Shown: piece by piece, positions 18,447 through 43,787 of the stretch
How the letters are laid out: every line of letters begins with the position of its first letter
Numbering within the stretch: the first letter of the stretch is position 1
From: Candidatus Micrarchaeota archaeon
GTDB lineage: Archaea; Micrarchaeota; Micrarchaeia; Anstonellales; Bilamarchaeaceae
NCBI GenBank assembly: GCA_018812625.1
Contig: JAHJDH010000025.1
Location: 13,726 to 77,725, forward strand
DNA length: 64,000 nt
Reading direction: 5' to 3'
Position numbers and translations under genes: made by a program
Notes under the pieces: generated by a model
Databases searched by the model: none
Told to the model about the DNA's origin: nothing
The model's input: the letters and a program-made list of their open reading frames with translations, nothing else

Positions 18447-21400
18447 ATGGCTGGAAAACCAAGAGGTCCGAAACAACTGTCTCATGCTGAAAAAGACCTA
18501 ATTCCAACTTCTCTGGCAAAGGCTAAAAAATTCGGCTCGCGCGATACTCAAAGCGAATCCTATTGCATTCTTCCAGCTCATCTTTGTCAAGATATTCTAT
18601 CTACAGTATATGATGCTATTGTTGTAACCAATTCTAAAGGCAGAATTGTTTCATGGAATCCTGCTGCAACAAGGGTTTTTGGTTATGATCCTGACGAAGT
18701 TGTTGGGGAGCCAATATCCATCATAATGCCTCCTGACTCCAAAGAGGCATTTAGATTAAGATCACAAGAAAACGGATTTGCTCCTCCCCATTCTTTTGAT
18801 AAACCTGTGGAGCTCTCCGGTCTTGCCAAAAACGGAAGTATTGTTCCAATAGAACTTACCATTGTTCCCTGGAATCGGGGAGATGAAGTATATTTTGTCA
18901 GTACTATCCGGGATATTAGTGAAAGAAAAGGAGCAGAGCTCTTATTACTGGAGAGTGAGCAACTTCAATCTGCCTTATATGGTGTCATGCGTGAGGGCGT
19001 ATGCATTCATGAACTAATTTTTGATGATGATGGAGTTCCTATAGATTATCAGATACTTGATGCTAATCCGGCATATTCCAAACTAACCGAAATTCCTTCT
19101 AGTGTTGCAGTAGGTTCTCTTGCTTCTGAGCTCTATGGGCCTGGTCCCCCATTCCTTGATATTTATGCTGAAGTTGCAACTACTGGAGTTTCCCAGGATT
19201 TTGAAATCACATGGACGCCTCAAAACAAAACATTTCATGTTTCTGTTTTTTCACTTAGAGCAGATCAATTCGCAACGGTGTTTGCTGATATTACTGCAAG
19301 AAAACGTGCAGAAGAAGCTCTAACGAGTAGTGAAACAAGATACCGGACTCTTTTTGAAAGCACTCACGATGCCAGTATGACTCTGAGTCCTCCTACTTGG
19401 AAATTTACTAGCGGTAACCACGCAGCATTGAATTTATTTGGTGTTGAAGATGTCGAATCATTTACTTCAAATCCTCCCTGGGCATATTCTCCTAAATTTC
19501 AACCTGATGGTCAATCTTCCCGCGAGAAGGCAAGGGAAATGATACAAAAAGCCATGTCTGATGGTTCTGCATTCTTTGAGTGGACTCACAAAAAACCCAC
19601 TGGCCAAGAGTTTCCAGCCACAGTCTTACTCACACGCATGGAATTAGATGACAAGCTCATGCTTCAGGCTGTGGTAAGAGACATTACTGAACAGAAGCTG
19701 GCCGAAGAATCATTAGCCCGAAACGAAGAGAGGATGACAAAAATAGCTCAGGTCTTTTCAACTCTTGGAAGCAACACTGGAGAAAACATTCAGAAACTAA
19801 CTGCACTTTGCGGCGAACTCCTTGATGCTGATTGTGCGCTCTATAATTGTCTTGAGGGGGATGTGCTTTGTTCTTTGGGAACCTGGAATGTTCCTGATGA
19901 TTATGAAGTAGTCTCTCAGGCAGAAGGCCATATCTGCTCTGATCTTATTTCCTATCCTCCAGACGGTGGCCAGCATGTTGTTTCTAATCTTCTATCTTCG
20001 TCATATGCGGAAACTGATTCCAATGTAAGAAAGTATGGTCTGAAAACTTATCTTGGAAATTTGATCAGGTGTCAAGGCGAGCCCATCGGGACATTATGTG
20101 TTGTTTATACTTCTGATTATAAACCATCCAAAGCAGATCGAAAAATTCTCAGTATTATTGCTACTACCATCTCAGGCGAAGAGGAGCGCAGAATGGCCGA
20201 ATTGGCTCTTCGTGAGAGTGAAGAGCGATTCAGAGATCTTACTGAAGCTTTGCCTCAAACTGTTTATGAAACTGATCTGGAAGGACGCATCTCTTATGCT
20301 AACCCTCAGGCTTTCGAGACCTTTGGCTATCCCCCATCAATTATTGAAAGTGGCATAACTCTTGCCAATCTCATTTCTCAAAAAGACTGGCCTCGCCTTT
20401 CTGATTCCATATCTGCTCTTCGCTCTGGGGGGCACACTTCTGGAAAGGAATATCTGGCTGTTAGATCAGATGGCACAACATTTCCCATTGTAGTTTATAC
20501 TCGTACTAAAAAAAGAGATAATCGTATCATTGGTTTTAGGGGAATTGCAGTAGATATTACTGAGCGCAGAAAATTAGAAGTTGAGATGCAAAGAAATGCC
20601 AAAATGAAAGCAGTGGGTCGTTTAGCCGGCGGAATCGCGCATGATTTTAACAACCTGCTCATGGTCATGGTTGGAAATGCTTCTTTGGCCGGAGTGCTAA
20701 CCGAACCGAGTGATGATGAAGAGCGGGCAAAAGTTCTAAGCGAAATCGAGAGGGTCGGGAAAGAGGCAAAGGCACTAACTGATCAGCTTCTTACCTTTGC
20801 CAAAGGGGGAAGCCCTGTCAAAGAAACAGCATCTATGGTTGAACTTCTCGAAGAAACCTCGCAACTTATGCTCAGGGGATCCAATGTTATTGCAAAACAT
20901 AATCACCCAAGCGATCTTTGGCCTGTTGATATTGACCGGAGCCAAATTGGCCAGGTTGTTCAAAATCTTGTTGTGAACGCAGATCAATCCATGCCAGAAG
21001 GCGGCACAATACTTCTTTCTTCTCGCAATATATCCAATCCCCCAAACTTGCCTCTAGGTGATTATATAGAGCTATCATTTACTGATACTGGAATCGGAAT
21101 CCGTTCAAATGAACTGGAAGAAATCTTCGAACCGTTTTACACAACTAAAGATAAGGGACATGGTCTTGGTCTTGCAACTACCTACAGAATAGTCAAAAAT
21201 CATGGCGGAGATATTCATGTAAAATCAAAATTGGGCAAAGGATCAACATTCACGGTCTACCTTCCTGCGAAACCCGGAGCAGTACCTATTCCAAGCTACA
21301 CCCCACCTTCTAATTTAACTACTGGCAATGCCAGGATATTGCTGATGGATGACGAGCCTTCTGTTCGAAATTCCGCATCGCGAATGCTCCAAAGACTTGG

Positions 21401-26021: not shown

Positions 26022-26717
26022 TCACCATATAAAAGGAATCAGACGGTATCTTGTTTTTCTGCAGTATTCCACATATCCAGGCAGGTCGCGCCTGAGCACT
26101 TCCTCCTCATTCAAAATGCGCAATACTATAACTGGGATAAGCAGAATAAATGCGGGCACAGCTACATAAGAGCCAAGTGCAATTGGGGTTGCCATATACA
26201 TGACCAGTGTCCCGACATACATCGGATGCCTGACAACAGAATATGGTCCGGTTGATATGACTCTCTGGCCTTTGTCGACCTGGACTGTGCGCCCAGCGTA
26301 ACCGTTTTCCCTGAACACCAAAAAGATTAGCAAGTACCCTAGGAAGACAAAAACATCTGCGACGATGGAAATTTCATGTGGCACAAGAGACCATCCAAAA
26401 CGGTAATCAAATCCTGGGATGAGGAAGGCAATTATGAACATCAACGCTGATACTTTGATGATGAGCCCCTGCCTGGCCTCACTTTCCTTTGTTCTCATTC
26501 TCCGCTCCAAGAATGCCGGGTCCTTTTTCAGGAAATAGAGAACTACAAAAGAGGCAGGCACAACCAATATCGCGATATATACCCAGGCCTGCCAGTAGTC
26601 GAGGGTGCCAGCCGGTCCAAATAGAAAAATCCCCAGGATAACCGGTGTTGCTAATAAAGCAAGAAAGATTTTCTTCTTCAATGCAGTCGCATCCATGAAG
26701 TCAATTTCCTTTAACAA
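26022..26717 (-). CDS. isoprenylcysteine carboxyl methyltransferase (ICMT)/phospholipid methyltransferase-family membrane protein
   Basis: Multi-TM protein with C-terminal 'VISTGPYSVVRHPMYVGTLVMY', the ICMT/PEMT SAM-binding signature. Confidence 0.7.
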   Translation of the reverse strand: MLKEIDFMDATALKKKIFLALLATPVILGIFLFGPAGTLDYWQAWVYIAILVVPASFVVLYFLKKDPAFLERRMRTKESEARQGLIIKVSALMFIIAFLIPGFDYRFGWSLVPHEISIVADVFVFLGYLLIFLVFRENGYAGRTVQVDKGQRVISTGPYSVVRHPMYVGTLVMYMATPIALGSYVAVPAFILLIPVIVLRILNEEEVLRRDLPGYVEYCRKTRYRLIPFIW

Positions 26718-32533: not shown

Positions 32534-32729
32534 AATATACCTCTCGTTTATTTATTGGAAAAAAACCCTAATATACCTTGCGGCTATCCCTTTTTTCCTT
32601 CTCCTCTCTAAAATCTCATAAAATCAGGTATCTAGCGGCAACTCGGTAGCTACTCTTGTCATCATTGATCAGTCTGGGACGGTGTCGTCATCGCTGCCTA
32701 TTTGTATTTTAGGCGGGCGATTTTAAAAA

Positions 32730-34982: not shown

Positions 34983-36722
34983 TCAGAAGAATTTCAAAAT
35001 CATTTTTTTCATTTCTTCAAAGAGTTCTTTCTCTTCCTTGCTGAGCATGTCTATCCTCTCATTCCAAACATCTATCTCGTCTTTGGTCATGTATGTGTAG
35101 AGGACATCTCCTTCTGCAGCATCCTTTGGAATAGTCATCCCCTCGCAGGAAATTGCAAGTTCATCTCCAACAGAAGCTTCCAAAACTTTCTCCTTATCTT
35201 TTTGGATTTCCCGAACCTGGCCAACAATTTCTCCAGATTTATTCATAAGCCTGTAATTCTTTTTCAATCTTCCAGCAAGAACATTAACTCCAAAAATCGC
35301 TGGTTTTGATACTCGAAATACATATCCGTTCAGTATTTTGATCTTGCCCGGGCATGTGAGCTTTGTCAGAGCTTCTTTTTTCATATTCTCTTTTTCTGTT
35401 TTTACCCACTGTTGATATTCTTCAATTACTTTGTATACAATATTGCTATAGATGACAGGAACATTTGCATTTTTGCTCTCTTCTCTTGCTTCTTCTAAAA
35501 CCTTAACATTAAATCCAAGAATGGCCCTGAGGAATCTATCTTCCTGAGCTCCAGCTGCCAGTATGTCTCCTCTGGTAATATTTCCAACTGCAGCATCCTT
35601 TACATTGATATTTGCATTTTTCAAAAGCGAGAGTAGAGCTTCAACCGAACCAAGGCTGTCTGCTCTGAGAATAACTCCGGCCTCATCACGCTTCTGGAAA
35701 ATAACTTTTTTGAATTGTGTTTCTATTGCAATTCTATCTTTTTCAAAATCATGAATAACTTCAATTGGAGAACCTGGAATTGCATCTTCAAGTCCTGGTG
35801 CGCAGATTTTTACTCCAGCAGCAGCAATAACTTCCTCTATATTGAGAAACTTGTCTCCACCGCTAAGATTTGGCTCAAGCAAACTCCTTACCTTTGTTTT
35901 CTTAATTCCATTTGGAGTCATGTATGCAATCTCATCATTTTTCCTGATGATCCCATCATACACAATAACATCAACAGTAGTTCCAAGTCCTTTCTCGTCC
36001 TTTACTTCGATAATACTGCCCTTCCCCCGTCCATTTTCCTCAATTTCAAGGCGCGCTCCAAGGAATTTTTGGGAAAGGCCCCCAATAATCACTAATAATT
36101 CGCTCAGTCCCTCTTTGGTCTTTGCACTAATCGGTATGATCCCTATTTGCTTAGAGAAATCTTCCACACGGTCGAAGCGTTCACTGTCAAATCCATGCTC
36201 TGAGATTTTCCCCATGATCTCGTACATTTTTTCGTCAAGTCTTTGTTTGATGTGCTCTGGCTGTTTTGAGTAAGATTCCAAAAATGAAGTTGTACCATAA
36301 CTTTTCCATCCGCCCAAAGCATCTATTTTGTTTGCTACGAGGATGAAAGGAGTTTTATGTTGTTTGAGTATCCTGATGCTCTCAATTGTTTGCGGCTGGA
36401 ATCCCTGATTAATATCAACCAGTAAAATAACAAGATCAGCAAGACTGCCTCCTCTATCCCGAAGATTTCCAAAAGCTTCATGTCCTGGAGTATCTATGAA
36501 AAGAAGTCCTGGAATGGTGATTTTAAGTTTCATTTTTTCAGCTAAATCTTTTGCAACTGCATCAATAGATTTTTTTGACACATAGCTTGCTCCTATCATC
36601 TGGGTAATGCCACCTGCTTCTTTCTTTACAACTGCAGTTCCACGGATACTATCGAGGAGGGTAGTTTTGCCATGGTCAACATGAGCAAGAAGACAAATTA
36701 TTGGGGATCTTGTAAATTTCAT
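34983..36722 (-). CDS. infB: translation initiation factor aIF5B (IF2 family GTPase)
   Basis: G1 'AHVDHGKTTLLD', G3 'DTPGHEAF', G4 'NKID'. Four-domain aIF5B length of about 580 aa. Confidence 0.9.
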   Translation of the reverse strand: MKFTRSPIICLLAHVDHGKTTLLDSIRGTAVVKKEAGGITQMIGASYVSKKSIDAVAKDLAEKMKLKITIPGLLFIDTPGHEAFGNLRDRGGSLADLVILLVDINQGFQPQTIESIRILKQHKTPFILVANKIDALGGWKSYGTTSFLESYSKQPEHIKQRLDEKMYEIMGKISEHGFDSERFDRVEDFSKQIGIIPISAKTKEGLSELLVIIGGLSQKFLGARLEIEENGRGKGSIIEVKDEKGLGTTVDVIVYDGIIRKNDEIAYMTPNGIKKTKVRSLLEPNLSGGDKFLNIEEVIAAAGVKICAPGLEDAIPGSPIEVIHDFEKDRIAIETQFKKVIFQKRDEAGVILRADSLGSVEALLSLLKNANINVKDAAVGNITRGDILAAGAQEDRFLRAILGFNVKVLEEAREESKNANVPVIYSNIVYKVIEEYQQWVKTEKENMKKEALTKLTCPGKIKILNGYVFRVSKPAIFGVNVLAGRLKKNYRLMNKSGEIVGQVREIQKDKEKVLEASVGDELAISCEGMTIPKDAAEGDVLYTYMTKDEIDVWNERIDMLSKEEKELFEEMKKMILKFF

Positions 36723-37163: not shown

Positions 37164-37652
37164 ATGTTCTTTAGATCAAAGAAGAAGCCCGGCCAGTCTG
37201 CAAAAGACCCAAGAGCTGCGATACTGGAAAGCAAGCGTGCAATAGGTGCTTCTCTTCGTGAAAAGACCGTGGTTTTCATAGTTGAAGATACTCAATTTGC
37301 TATTCTTACTCCACTTATCCAATCTGGGGTATTTCGAGGCATTGTTGGACCTAAAAGCAGGGTTTTGACTTATACTGGCTTCTTCTCCGATAATCTTTCT
37401 GCTGATGTTTTAGTCCTGAAACCTTCTAGCCGCATTGGAGAAAACCTTGCTCTTTTTACCGATCGTCTGATTGATTTTAAGTCATCAAATCCAAACTCTG
37501 CAGTCATTGTTTGCGCCACTGATCCAGAACTCTCGAAAAGGCTTATTCCTCACTATCAAGCTGGTCAAATTGATTCACTTGAAAAATCCGGCAGTGATGA
37601 TTTCCAGATTCTTTTTAATGCATCAAAAATTCTTGAAAGGTTACAAAGATGA
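37164..37652 (+). CDS. pseudo-receiver (REC-like) domain protein, paralog 1
   Basis: 'TVVFIVEDTQ...ADVLVLKPS...SAVIVCATD...AGQIDSLEK' follows the beta1/beta3/beta4/beta5 pattern of CheY-like receivers. Lys replaces the phospho-acceptor Asp. Confidence 0.4.
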   Translation: MFFRSKKKPGQSAKDPRAAILESKRAIGASLREKTVVFIVEDTQFAILTPLIQSGVFRGIVGPKSRVLTYTGFFSDNLSADVLVLKPSSRIGENLALFTDRLIDFKSSNPNSAVIVCATDPELSKRLIPHYQAGQIDSLEKSGSDDFQILFNASKILERLQR

Positions 37653-38116
37653 GACAAAAATTTTCACAGCATACTGCTTCTAGACTACGTTTTTCAGATC
37701 CACTACTCGAATCAGCACACGGCAGAACAATCGTTTTTGTTACAGAAGAGTCAAATCTTCGCTCTGAAGCTAAATTAATGCCTCATTTTTTTCAGCGCAC
37801 AGGAGCGTCAAGTTCCAGCAAGGTTCTTGGTTATTCCCACTTCTACGATTGTCCTGAGGGGATTACAGCTGACATCTTGATTCTTAGAAGCTCCAAGCTT
37901 TTTCCACTTCATTTAGGCAAGCTCCATAAAGCTCTTGAAGCTTTTAGGGGCCCTAATCCAAAGGCTGCTGCTATTATTTCTCTTCTTGATACATCTCTTC
38001 TATCATGCTTTGAACATTTTGCTTCAGCCGGCCTTGTTAATTTTGTTGAAACTACTCTTGCAGACGATCCAGCACTGATAAAGGCGGGTTTGGAAATCCT
38101 CGAACGCATGCAGTAG
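37649..38116 (+). CDS. pseudo-receiver (REC-like) domain protein, paralog 2
   Basis: Co-linear similarity to the preceding ORF ('TIVFVTEES...ADILILRSS...AAAIISLLD...ILERMQ'). 4-nt overlap. Confidence 0.4.
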   Translation: MRQKFSQHTASRLRFSDPLLESAHGRTIVFVTEESNLRSEAKLMPHFFQRTGASSSSKVLGYSHFYDCPEGITADILILRSSKLFPLHLGKLHKALEAFRGPNPKAAAIISLLDTSLLSCFEHFASAGLVNFVETTLADDPALIKAGLEILERMQ

Positions 38117-38154
38117 TCTTTTAATCCTATTTCATCAACTATAGTTTCTACTCC

Positions 38155-38319
38155 GGGCCCGTAGTCGAGTCCCAGCTTTTAGAAAAAAGCCGGACCAAAA
38201 CTTTTTGGTTAAGCGACAATGGTTAAGACGCTACCTTGACATGGTAGAGATGTTGTGGATCGCCACAATCCTCTTCCACAAAGTGGTAGAGATCCCCAGT
38301 TCGATCCTGGGCGGGCCCA
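38155..38319 (+). tRNA. tRNA-Val(GAC) interrupted by two non-canonical introns (D-loop and variable region)
   Basis: 5' acceptor GGGCCCG pairs with 3' CGGGCCC + A73. T-arm is CCCAG-TTCGATC-CTGGG. Anticodon arm is CTACC-TTGACAT-GGTAG. Removing about 50 nt (38171-38220) and about 42 nt (around 38248-38289) gives a canonical 73-nt tRNA. It has U8, A14, G18G19, A21, U33, A37 and T-loop UUCGAUC. Confidence 0.6.
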
Positions 38320-38338
38320 TTTTCTTTATGGTGGTTCT

Positions 38339-38770
38339 ATGTTTGGTCTGTTTGGCGGAAAAAAACTGAGTGTGAAATTAGATAAAACTGAATTCAAACC
38401 TGGAGAAGAAATTTCTGGAATCATAAAGCTTGAAACAAAATCTCCTCTTCCAGCTGACCGGTTGAGGGTGGCATTGTCCTATAATGCGCCTGATAAAACA
38501 TACACCACTCCTATTGAGACAGAATTTGTATCTACTGAGATTCAAGGCAGTTCCGAGTTTGTTTCCGGTGAATTTCATTTTTCAATTTCCATTCCTGCTA
38601 TTGCTCCAGAAATTGAATATCCTGGAGATGATCCACAGATGGCAGATGCTTGGAAAAATGATGACGTTCTTGGCGCAAATTCTTTTTTCGTTCTGGCATT
38701 TCTTGAATTTCCAAAAGACAAGCCACTAAAGTCAAAGTATGCCGATATCAAAATTCACTATAACGAATAA
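38339..38770 (+). CDS. hypothetical beta-rich protein
   Basis: The ORF-track start at 38255 overlaps the tRNA, so I trimmed the start to MFGLFGG at 38339. Beta-sandwich-like composition. Confidence 0.35.
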   Translation: MFGLFGGKKLSVKLDKTEFKPGEEISGIIKLETKSPLPADRLRVALSYNAPDKTYTTPIETEFVSTEIQGSSEFVSGEFHFSISIPAIAPEIEYPGDDPQMADAWKNDDVLGANSFFVLAFLEFPKDKPLKSKYADIKIHYNE

Positions 38771-41716: not shown

Positions 41717-42823
41717 GTGGCGGAAACAGTTTTTAAACTTAACAATCCTTCTCTACCTGTGGTAAAGAAAAGATCTCAAAAAGCCGGACTCCCTCCAGGA
41801 ACCCCAGTTCTTACAGAAGATGATACAGAACCCTCAAAGATCACTATCCTGGATTATGACTCAAAAGATTTTACTGAGATCAAGCCAAAATCCATAGATG
41901 AATGCATTGCCTATATGAAGAGGAAGAAGAGCGTCACATGGATTAATGTTGATGGCCTTCAGGACATCTCAATGCTCCAGAAGCTTTGTGAGGAGTTTGG
42001 TATACACCCTCTTGTTCTTGAAGACATACTGTCAACTGACCAGCGTCCGAAAGTCGAAAGTTATGATACTTACCTCTACATTGTATCGCGCATGCTTGAT
42101 ATAGATGGCAAGAAAAACCAAATCAGTTCAGAGCAGATCAGTATCATACTTACGCCTACCTTTGTAATCTCAATACAGGAGAAAAAAGGCGATATTTTTG
42201 AATCCATCCGAAACCAGATAAGGACCAACAAGGGAAAGCTTCGAAAAACTGGTCCTGATTTTCTTGCATACTCTATTCTGGATCGGATTGTGGATCATTA
42301 TTTCCTGATTCTTGAGCAGCTTGGCGAGAGGATTGAATTTATGGAAGAAGAGCTTGTACGCTCTCCATCTCCAAAGACTCTCCATCAAATTCATAGGATG
42401 AAGAGAGACATGGTGTTGCTTCGAAAATCTATCTGGCCTATGAGGGAGCTTATTAACGGGCTTGATCGTGAGGGGCAGAGCAGCAGCCTATTGATAAAAA
42501 AAGGAACTGCTATCTATCTGCGTGACCTTTATGACCATACCATCCAGGTGATCGATACAGTAGAAACTTACCGCGATATTGTCTCTGGCATGCTTGATAT
42601 ATATCTCTCCAGCATCAGCTACCGCCTCAACGAGATCATGAAGGTGCTGACCATTATTGGTACTATATTCATCCCGCTCACATTTGTCACCGGGCTTTAT
42701 GGTATGAACTTTCGCTTCATGCCGGAACTTGAGCATCCGTTTGGCTATCCTTTGGTTCTTTTCCTTATGATGATCATGAGCTTCATCATGCTCATTTATT
42801 TCCGCAGAAAGAAATGGATATAA
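41717..42823 (+). CDS. corA: magnesium/cobalt transporter CorA
   Basis: Cytoplasmic domain + two C-terminal TM helices with a 'YGMNF' pore motif. Confidence 0.85.
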   Translation: MAETVFKLNNPSLPVVKKRSQKAGLPPGTPVLTEDDTEPSKITILDYDSKDFTEIKPKSIDECIAYMKRKKSVTWINVDGLQDISMLQKLCEEFGIHPLVLEDILSTDQRPKVESYDTYLYIVSRMLDIDGKKNQISSEQISIILTPTFVISIQEKKGDIFESIRNQIRTNKGKLRKTGPDFLAYSILDRIVDHYFLILEQLGERIEFMEEELVRSPSPKTLHQIHRMKRDMVLLRKSIWPMRELINGLDREGQSSSLLIKKGTAIYLRDLYDHTIQVIDTVETYRDIVSGMLDIYLSSISYRLNEIMKVLTIIGTIFIPLTFVTGLYGMNFRFMPELEHPFGYPLVLFLMMIMSFIMLIYFRRKKWI

Positions 42824-42824
42824 A

Positions 42825-43787
42825 TTGTCTCTTCGATGGTTTTCTATGCTCCAGAGAATATTCTTTTTTCTGATTCTTATTGCCCTTACTGCAGGCACCT
42901 GGTTTGTTTCACAACAATATCCTCATCCGATGCTTGATAGTGCCATCAATACTTTGATTGCACTTACAATACTCTATCTTGTTTTCAAATTGGTTCTTGA
43001 TAAGGTAGTTGCTGACAAGCTGGATGATCCCAAGCTTCGGTATTCCTTTCGAAAGGCAGTATCCTTTGCATATGTTATCGTCCTTTTTATTGCAGTTATA
43101 ACAATATGGATTCCAAATCCGGAAGCTCTTTTTGTTGCATATGGACTTATGGCAGCTGGAATTGCAGTTGCCCTCTCAGATTTGTTCAAGAATCTGGCAG
43201 GTGGAGTAATCATCTTTTTCACAAAGCCTTTTTCAGTTGGAGACCGTATTGAAATTTCTGGCGAGTTCGGCGACATAATAGATGTGGATATTATGTATAC
43301 CACTCTTATGGAAATCCGTGAGTGGGTTGACGGAGATCAGGCAACAGGAAGACTTAATATTGTTCCAAATGGCCTGATCCTCACATCTGTAGTAAATAAT
43401 TATACCAAGGACAACGAATTCATCTGGGATGAAATCATGATCCCAATCACCTATAACAGCGACTGGAAGGCAGCCTCAAATCTTATGCTTGATACTGTAA
43501 AAAAGGAAACAGAAACAATAATCCAGAAGTCAAACAAGGAATATTCCCATCTGCTGGAAAAATATTATCTGCGAAAAAAACCGGCCGAGCCAGGAGTATT
43601 CATGAAGCTTACCGATAACTGGATCCAGCTTGCTGTTCGCTACATGACTCCTGCACGGGAAAGGCGTACTCTTCACAATCAGCTTAGTAAAATCCTTCTT
43701 ACAAAATTCGAGAAATCCAAAAAAATCAAGATTGCATCTGCTACCTATGAGATCGTGGGCCTTCCACAAATCCGGCTAAAAAAGTGA
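42825..43787 (+). CDS. mscS: small-conductance mechanosensitive channel (MscS family)
   Basis: Three TM helices, then 'PFSVGDRIEISGEFGDIIDVDIMYTTLME', the MscS beta-domain signature. Confidence 0.8.
   Translation: MSLRWFSMLQRIFFFLILIALTAGTWFVSQQYPHPMLDSAINTLIALTILYLVFKLVLDKVVADKLDDPKLRYSFRKAVSFAYVIVLFIAVITIWIPNPEALFVAYGLMAAGIAVALSDLFKNLAGGVIIFFTKPFSVGDRIEISGEFGDIIDVDIMYTTLMEIREWVDGDQATGRLNIVPNGLILTSVVNNYTKDNEFIWDEIMIPITYNSDWKAASNLMLDTVKKETETIIQKSNKEYSHLLEKYYLRKKPAEPGVFMKLTDNWIQLAVRYMTPARERRTLHNQLSKILLTKFEKSKKIKIASATYEIVGLPQIRLKK

Follow-up and report, generated by a model that had tools for sequence, protein, structure and literature searches.

Introduction

The closest described counterpart of the gene reported here is found in ARMAN-2 (Candidatus Micrarchaeum acidiphilum), in which, according to Fujishima et al. 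(2011, PMC3239211), 56% of the tRNA genes are disrupted and a three-unit epsilon2 splicing endonuclease (EndA) cleaves both strict and relaxed bulge-helix-bulge (BHB) motifs in vitro. Structures of epsilon2 endonucleases have been published (Hirata et al. 2012, PMC3488258; PMC12397907), and a review covers this class of enzyme (PMC6379350). The ARMAN-2 introns are canonical as well as non-canonical, sometimes occur several to a gene, and are bounded by both strict and relaxed (hBH/BHL) motifs; the examples illustrated are T-loop introns (53/54, 59/60) and one intron at 37/38, and no D-loop intron at 15/16 of a tRNA-Val gene was found in the text consulted. A second group with comparable genes is the order Thermoproteales, for which PMC4033280 describes tRNA genes with as many as three introns and with relaxed HBh'/hBH motifs, and summarises under 'intron transposition' the occurrence of similar introns at different positions (Sugahara et al. 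2008; Fujishima et al. 2010). The canonical archaeal intron, located at 37/38 and presented by an hBHBh' motif, was described by Marck and Grosjean (2003), as cited in PMC4033280 and PMC3239211.

Here we describe a tRNA-Val(GAC) gene from Candidatus Micrarchaeota archaeon that is interrupted by two inserts, located in a 64-kb window, by which we mean the whole stretch of 64,000 nt that was analysed. We regard it as very probably a functional chromosomal gene with two introns of the endonuclease type (BHB class). Its host belongs to the same phylum-level lineage as ARMAN-2, and a two-intron tRNA gene is expected in Micrarchaeota, where disrupted tRNA genes and an epsilon2 endonuclease have already been published (PMC3239211). 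The likeness to Thermoproteales lies in the number of introns (one orthologue of the present gene, L007, has three), in the relaxed form of the motif, and in the recurrence of similar introns at different positions, here within Micrarchaeota (29 of 34 positions shared between intron 1 of L095 and intron 2 of L092). Unlike the genes of Thermoproteales, the window gene comes from DPANN and not Crenarchaeota, an epsilon2 rather than an (alpha-beta)2 endonuclease is to be expected, and its host is a mesophile with a low-GC genome and A/U-rich intron hairpins. The second of the two introns resembles the canonical 37/38 intron in its outer helix, which is the anticodon stem, in its use of anticodon-loop bases for the central helix, in its 3-nt bulges, and in the inner helix formed by the intron, but departs from it through an A35.A mismatch in the 4-bp central helix and through a first 10 nt that duplicate the start of the 3' exon and give rise to a competing fold.

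Methods

Hidden tRNA genes were sought on both strands of the window using a custom scan, which required a T-arm (5-bp stem, TTCRANN loop) with a 7-nt strand after it and, no more than 700 nt upstream, a perfect complement of that strand plus T8. Relatives of the neighbouring aIF5B gene were collected by searching a single genome from each species, and a metagenome scan using the middle exon (exon 2, as a 21-22-mer) as query added 20 loci, 17 of which could be parsed as orthologues of the tRNA gene. An unconstrained scan of the locus for BHB motifs returned many chance motifs, so a BHB match alone is weak evidence, and splice sites were therefore set first from intron-free orthologues; those of intron 1 were fixed in this manner independently. 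Comparisons between introns at different positions were made among the tRNA-Val orthologues.

Results and discussion

Gene identity and genomic context

The gene spans 165 nt at window positions 38155-38319 on the plus strand, where the sequence can be read directly as GGGCCCGTAGTCGAG, an insert of 50 nt, TGGTTAAGACGCTACCTTGACA, an insert of 42 nt, and TGGTAGAGATCCCCAGTTCGATCCTGGGCGGGCCCA. The acceptor stem is a perfect 7 bp (GGGCCCG/CGGGCCC), the T-arm is CCCAG-TTCGATC-CTGGG, and the anticodon loop is TTGACAT. Removal of the 50 nt (38170-38219) and the 42 nt (38242-38283) leaves a 73-nt tRNA that ARAGORN calls as tRNA-Val(gac) and that is identical at 73/73 positions to L005 1777-1849, a syntenic, intron-free gene which itself scores 67 bits against Rfam RF00005 (gathering score 29). 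The identification of a tRNA-Val(GAC) from these arms, and of a 73-nt tRNA obtained by two deletions, had been made in the initial annotation, and both are borne out. The product contains all of the conserved tRNA bases, namely U8, A14, R15, G18 G19, A21, U33, R37, Y48, G53 T54 T55 C56, R57, A58, C61, and the discriminator A73; one D-stem pair, G13.A22, is non-Watson-Crick.

All three exons lie on the plus strand. Exon 1 (nt 1-15, 38155-38169) comprises GGGCCCG, U8 A9, the D-stem 5' strand GTCG, and A14 G15, and matches the intron-free genes of L004 and L005; its end could equally be placed at 38170 owing to a one-base ambiguity (T). Exon 2 (nt 16-37, 38220-38241) holds the 3' part of the D-loop, the D-stem 3' strand, CTACC, and the loop bases TTGACA, with the anticodon GAC at 38238-38240, and is identical to the intron-free orthologues. 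Exon 3 (nt 38-73, 38284-38319) consists of GGTAG, the variable loop AGATC, the T-arm, CGGGCCC, and the discriminator A, and is identical to L005. Upstream, an A/T-rich candidate for an archaeal TATA element, TTTTAAT, is situated at 38119-38125 (plus strand), 30-36 nt before the mature 5' end, and a comparable A/T box (CTTTTAATCC, TTTTTATTC or TTTTAAAT) stands at equal distance in most orthologues, irrespective of whether they have introns. A candidate stop for transcription is the T-rich tract TTTTCTTT at 38320-38327 (plus strand), which adjoins the discriminator base; T-rich tracts are also found 3' of the gene in many orthologues.

Standard searches did not recover the locus. ARAGORN reported 0 tRNA genes across the entire 64-kb window and so left the unspliced locus undetected, while Rfam gave 0 matches in the window at gathering thresholds and, at E <= 5, nothing at the locus and only sub-threshold C/D-box-like matches elsewhere. 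The custom acceptor and T-arm scan of both strands of the window returned 38155-38319 as its sole match, and no other hidden tRNA genes. The 165-nt RNA folds at -62.6 kcal/mol, compared with -44.3 +/- 4.2 for shuffled sequences (z = -4.3). A split or permuted tRNA gene was considered and ruled out, given that the three exons are colinear on one strand within 165 nt.

The tRNA gene adjoins a gene for aIF5B (34983-36722, minus strand), and the window also holds genes for CTP synthase, CorA, FtsZ, a class-I aminoacyl-tRNA synthetase, and further housekeeping functions. The aIF5B protein is 99% (L001) and 96% (L002) identical to that of Candidatus Micrarchaeota MAGs, and its archaeal relatives at 59-78% identity (L003-L011) all belong to Micrarchaeota or to 'Candidatus ainarchaeum'; host GC is 39%. 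To judge by the aIF5B relatives, the host is a member of Candidatus Micrarchaeota (DPANN) and not of Thermoproteales, which had been named as an example of the few lineages with tRNA genes of this kind. A Pfam scan of 10 ORFs of 320-417 aa, from among 51 large ORFs in the window, found no splicing endonuclease (EndA).

Orthologue series

A tRNA-Val(GAC) gene is present upstream of aIF5B in nine of the relatives L001-L011; in the other two, L009 and L011, the tRNA-Val exon motif was looked for and not found. The genes of L003, L004, and L005 are uninterrupted and 73 nt long, are called as tRNA-Val(gac) by ARAGORN, and score 57-67 bits against Rfam RF00005. Together with the metagenomic loci, the series amounts to 27 orthologues with 0, 1, 2, or 3 introns each. 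An intron occupies the D-loop site in 16/27 orthologues and a second intron is carried by 13; both are absent from L003, L004, L005, and L096, intron 1 is missing from L087, L089, and L092, and L007 has three introns. L002 and L086 share intron 1 and the complete exon sequences with the window gene but do not have intron 2. Intron presence is, as read from these gene sequences, variable among close relatives, and the usefulness of the introns as a phylogenetic marker, which had been proposed, is limited by the absence of intron 2 from L002 (96% identical in aIF5B) and L086. Across the 27 orthologues, the introns vary from 0 to 214 nt in length and also in sequence, while the exons of the window gene are 73/73 identical to those of L005 at an aIF5B identity of only 77%, a combination of exon conservation and intron variability that speaks for selection on the exons.

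The D-loop intron

Intron 1 (50 nt, 38170-38219, plus strand) interrupts the D-loop at 15/16 (or 16/17), a position set by the intron-free orthologues. Within it are hairpin I (38172-38193), hairpin II (38194-38209), and a copy of the start of exon 2, TGGTTAAG, at 38206-38213, followed by CGAC (38214-38217) just before the last two intron bases. The CGAC pairs with the D-stem strand GTCG (38164-38167, nt 10-13) to form a 4/4 central helix with the bulges AG|T and AA|T, and this GUCG:CGAC helix is present in the MFE fold of the precursor. The helix pairs at 3-4/4 positions in 16/16 carriers of a D-loop intron, even as the introns range from 34 to 133 nt and fall into at least six unrelated sequence types, and it shows compensatory changes (GTCC:GGAC in L010, GTCT:GGAC in L006, and GTCG:TGAC or CGGC elsewhere). 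As 4/4 pairing at a place specified beforehand has a probability of roughly 0.02 for each independent intron, the helix at intron 1 is not a product of chance.

No orthologue has an exon-exon outer helix at intron 1, which makes the motif a relaxed one. The 'type-B' first introns (L085, L091, L094, L098) have a clean inner helix of 5-6 bp; in the window gene, the inner helix next to the bulge is just 1 bp, 4-5 bases are unpaired between the central helix and the local hairpins, and two local hairpins, set in a three-way junction that GUCG:CGAC closes, take the place of the inner helix. On the modelled folds, intron 1 is a non-canonical intron with an HBh'-like BHB that fits the relaxed form only. 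The first of the two TGGTTAAG copies was also considered as the exon and was ruled out, as the intron-free orthologues read GTCGAGTGGTTAAGACG, which identifies the downstream copy as exonic.

The anticodon-loop intron

Intron 2 (42 nt, 38242-38283, plus strand) begins with TGGTAGAGAT (38242-38251), which duplicates the opening 10 nt of exon 3, and continues with a 7-bp apical hairpin, GTTGTGG-ATCG-CCACAAT (38252-38269); CTCTTCC then pairs back to GGTAGAG, and ACAA (38278-38281) lies opposite TTGA of the anticodon loop. Because of the 10-nt repeat, there are 11 placements of the intron, from 37/38 to 47/48, that are equivalent in sequence. Among these, BHB-like pairing was found only at 38241|38242 ... 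38283|38284, corresponding to 37/38, where the anticodon stem CTACC:GGTAG provides an outer helix of 5 bp, the central helix pairs at 3/4 positions (TTG:CAA, with an A.A mismatch at the fourth), the bulges are CA|T and AG|T, and the inner helix has 2+4 bp. RNAfold renders the central-helix region of intron 2 as a 6x6 internal loop.

The orthologues bear on this placement in two ways. The second introns of L087 (17 nt), L008, L092, L010, and L007 are unrelated in sequence, lack a repeat, and are positioned at 37/38 or 38/39 (a one-base ambiguity); the central helix is complete (4/4), forming a strict BHB at 37/38, in L087, L089, and L092, and pairs at 3-4/4 positions in 11/13 carriers representing 9 distinct intron sequences, with 2/4 Watson-Crick/GU pairs plus one mismatch in L008. 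Homologous introns in L093 and L095 begin with TGGCAGAGAT or TGGCAGGGAT where the exon reads TGGTAGAGAT, and since the upstream copy (GGCAG) would break the anticodon stem, the exon must be the downstream copy. The homologous introns of relatives can be placed only at 37/38 to 40/41, and the extended arm is the free MFE structure in every homologue if the exon-3 GGUAG is taken as the boundary of the arm. Intron 2 is thus almost certainly not in the variable loop, its best placement being the canonical site 37/38.

With the first 10 nt of exon 3 repeated at the start of intron 2, the anticodon region has two nearly isoenergetic folds. The whole precursor folds at -62.6 kcal/mol with the anticodon stem built from the intron copy and at -61.2 kcal/mol with the exon copy, so that the two are 1.4 kcal/mol apart; for the arm in isolation, the difference is 0.2 kcal/mol. 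The precursor RNA is predicted to be bistable, with only one of the folds presenting the splice sites.

Direct repeats

Two direct repeats accompany the introns, the 8-nt TGGTTAAG at 38206 and 38220 and the 10-nt TGGTAGAGAT at 38242 and 38284. The initial annotation had noted such repeats at the junctions, each one base shorter than found here, and had assigned GGTTAAG to both junctions of intron 1, whereas the two copies are found close to its 3' end, at a distance of 14 nt from each other. The uncertainty in splice sites that it attributed to the repeats applies to intron 2, with its 11 placements, but amounts to one base (T) at intron 1. Nor are repeats of this kind typical of BHB introns, as had been suggested: they are absent from the five unrelated types of second intron at the same site and from the type-B first introns, and were ruled out as a general feature of BHB motifs.

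In L089, the repeat similarity extends over 18/19 nt (ACCTTGACATGGTAGAGAT vs ACCTTGAAATGGTAGAGAT), which hints at a local duplication of the 3' side of the anticodon arm. An origin of intron 2 by simple tandem duplication of the 3' half of the tRNA was considered and is unsupported beyond the 10-nt repeat (18/19 in L089), there being no similarity between the remainder of intron 2 after its first 10 nt and the T-arm/acceptor part of exon 3 (local score 9-10, against 9-10 for shuffled sequences). A flanking direct repeat would permit the exact deletion of intron 2, and the pattern in L002 and L086 would fit such a loss; homologues of intron 2 occur in lineages more distant than these two.

Alternative explanations

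Three other accounts of the locus were weighed against that of a functional gene with introns at 15/16 and 37/38. The initial annotation took both introns to be non-canonical, which holds for the one in the D-loop; the second would on that account lie in the variable loop (about 47/48) and be excised via a BHB formed on the GGTAGAGAT repeats. This placement yields the same mature sequence at the DNA level, agrees with the free MFE of the whole precursor in building the anticodon stem with the first GGUAG copy, and would suit an insertion at 47/48 with target duplication, to which the layout of a 10-nt repeat, 32 nt, and a second 10-nt repeat also conforms. We nevertheless consider it improbable, as the placements from 38/39 to 47/48 show no BHB-like pairing (the central helix scores 0-3/4, and none combines central-helix pairing with an exon-side outer helix of more than 2 bp), the upstream copy in L093 and L095 (GGCAG) breaks the anticodon stem and cannot be exon, and all other orthologous second introns are unambiguously at 37/38 or 38/39. 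BHB motifs had been anticipated at both junctions, and the pairing at the junctions gave a relaxed one at intron 1 and a BHB-like one at 37/38, with none in the variable loop. The two placements differ in the 5' exon fragment they would generate, which would end in ...GGUAGAGAU after a cut in the variable loop and in ...UUGACA after a cut at 37/38.

A decaying or non-functional tRNA pseudogene, from which the insertions are never removed, would account for the failure of ARAGORN and Rfam to recognise the locus and for the weakness of the intron 1 motif. It is hard to reconcile with 73 exon positions identical to those of an intron-free orthologue at 77% aIF5B identity, with insertions exactly at the homologous intron sites of 16 and 13 orthologues, respectively, and with covarying junction helices and a conserved promoter-like box, which random insertions would not keep, and we hold it to be very improbable. 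Less credible still is that the 42-nt block escapes splicing and stays in the tRNA as a long extra arm of the class-II-like kind. The MFE fold does form two hairpins from the block between the anticodon arm and the T-arm, the place of a long variable arm; tRNA-Val, however, is a class-I tRNA, and the block is missing altogether from L002, L086, and many others, whose exons are identical. We know of no precedent for a 42-nt extra arm with two hairpins.

Proposed maturation and significance

For the favoured explanation, a functional gene with introns at 15/16 and 37/38, a course of maturation can be proposed from the sequence and its predicted folds. In the precursor, the D-stem strand GUCG (nt 10-13) would pair with CGAC of intron 1 to form a 4-bp central helix, with the 5' cut falling within AG|U, next to a local A/U-rich hairpin, and the 3' cut within AA|U. 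At intron 2, the anticodon stem would serve as outer helix, UUG(A) of the loop would pair with (A)CAA of the intron between the bulges CA|U and AG|U, and the 5' end of the intron, GGUAGAG, would pair with CUCUUCC to form the inner helix. A broad-specificity endonuclease, presumably of the epsilon2 type of Micrarchaeum/ARMAN-2, would cut all four sites, and an RtcB-type ligase would join the three exons. Broad specificity would be needed because the intron 1 motif is relaxed, and the description of the precursor as a demanding endonuclease substrate was apt in that the enzyme must tolerate a motif without an outer helix. CCA is not encoded in the gene and would on that account be added after transcription, a CCA-adding enzyme completing the 3' end. 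Splicing, the exact cut sites, and aminoacylation of the resulting tRNA-Val(GAC) are likewise predictions from the sequence.

The gene itself is unsurprising for its lineage, and the most useful by-products of the analysis are the comparative series and an intron module shared between positions. An essential tRNA gene of this kind goes unnoticed by standard tRNA finders in DPANN genomes, which inflates the apparent number of 'missing tRNA' genes in such MAGs. The precursor offers a well-defined natural substrate for the broad-specificity epsilon2 endonuclease, combining a relaxed D-loop junction that lacks an outer helix with a 37/38 junction whose central helix contains a mismatch. The series of 27 orthologues with 0-3 introns forms a compact set for the study of intron gain, loss, and movement, in a second lineage besides Thermoproteales.

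Intron families

In the window gene, the module in intron 1 consists of the A/T hairpin GCTTTT-AGAA-AAAAGC followed by GACCAAAAC, and a regex search of the window for the module found no copy besides this one. In general form, GACCAAAA(A)CU stands after a GC-clamped A/U hairpin, CUUUU-loop-AAAAG, which in brief notation gives CUUUU...AAAAG and GACCAAAACU. The module occurs at three positions of tRNA-Val (15/16, 37/38, and the T-loop), being found in the D-loop introns of L007 and L095, the anticodon-loop introns of L007, L010, and L092, and the T-loop intron of L007. The 29/34 identity between L092 intron 2 and L095 intron 1 corresponds to a score of 48, against 11.3 +/- 2.4 for shuffled sequences (z = 15); against shuffles, L007 intron 1 and L007 intron 3 give z = 12, and window-type intron 1 compared with intron 2 of L092 or L007 gives z = 6-8.6. 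Similar introns at different positions, the mark of transposition of the Thermoproteales type, are thereby found among the tRNA-Val orthologues.

Taken jointly, these observations allow the tentative suggestion, which we rate as possible rather than probable, that the introns belong to families in active turnover in Micrarchaeota, the module being a small mobile RNA or DNA element with splice-competent ends, and the 37/38 intron arising by local duplication and being lost exactly by way of the same repeat. The 37/38 intron of the window family would be born by duplication of the 3' side of the anticodon arm, with a repeat of 10 nt in the window gene and of 18/19 nt in L089, in which the self-complementary UUGA of the anticodon loop would supply the central helix, and the repeat would later allow exact loss of the intron by recombination or slippage, as may have happened in L002 and L086. 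If true, BHB introns would have a concrete mechanism of birth and death in a group other than Thermoproteales. In L007 and L010, the module is found at both ends of a long second intron, in inverted orientation.

Intron variation at the tRNA-Val(GAC) locus

Comparison of the window's tRNA-Val(GAC) gene (38155-38319, + strand) with its orthologues in two relatives, L002 (966-845) and L086 (8080-8201), revealed a presence/absence polymorphism. In these relatives, in which the neighbouring gene aIF5B is 96% identical to that of the window, the exons and D-loop intron are the same as in the window, but the 42-nt second intron is exactly absent. The first 10 nt of this intron are repeated as the first 10 nt of exon 3, a direct repeat that would permit its precise deletion. 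The orthologue in L007, a Micrarchaeota MAG, contains three introns, located in the D-loop (133 nt), at position 37/38 (214 nt), and in the T-loop at 59/60 or 60/61 (approximately 53 nt), resulting in a gene of 473 nt (5611-5139, on the minus strand of the locus) that was matched by neither ARAGORN nor Rfam.

An intron module, made up of a GC-clamped A/T hairpin (CTTTT-loop-AAAAG) and GACCAAAA(A)CT, is common to window positions 38176-38200 and to introns of the tRNA-Val orthologues in L007, L010, L092, and L095, where it occupies three different tRNA positions. In L007 and L010, inverted copies of the module form the ends of the long introns. A search of approximately 300 kb of Micrarchaeota sequence found no copies of the module outside of tRNA-Val introns.

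Genomic neighbourhood of the tRNA-Val gene

The 5′ flank of the gene is kept among close relatives. The sequence directly 3′ of the discriminator base (window 38320 onward) is wholly different among three groups, namely the window, L002/L086, and L081/L084; this pattern suggests that the 3′ end of the tRNA is a rearrangement or insertion breakpoint. In two other relatives, L087 (1704-1817) and L089 (6208-6321), a 114-nt candidate tRNA is found 13 nt downstream of tRNA-Val, with the acceptor GCAGGGG/CCCCTGC and the anticodon loop CTCAAGA (CAA, Leu), and the insertion past its anticodon loop looks like another 37/38 intron.

Matches to Rfam archaeal C/D-box sRNA families in the window, at 32641-32695 (−), 26427-26482 (+), 20688-20741 (+), and 42806-42878 (+), were sub-threshold (19-25 bits versus gathering scores of 42-50) and may be true divergent C/D sRNAs or chance matches. 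A mechanically called ORF with a GTG start (38255-38770, +) overlaps the tRNA gene in its 3′ half; the true start of the ORF is most likely the ATG at 38341, which would leave an intergenic gap of approximately 220 nt around the tRNA. Just upstream of the tRNA are two small, adjacent, and overlapping ORFs of 162 and 155 aa (37164-37652 and 37649-38116, both +), which look like tandem paralogues with common motifs such as (V/I)VF(I/V)(V/T)E(D/E).
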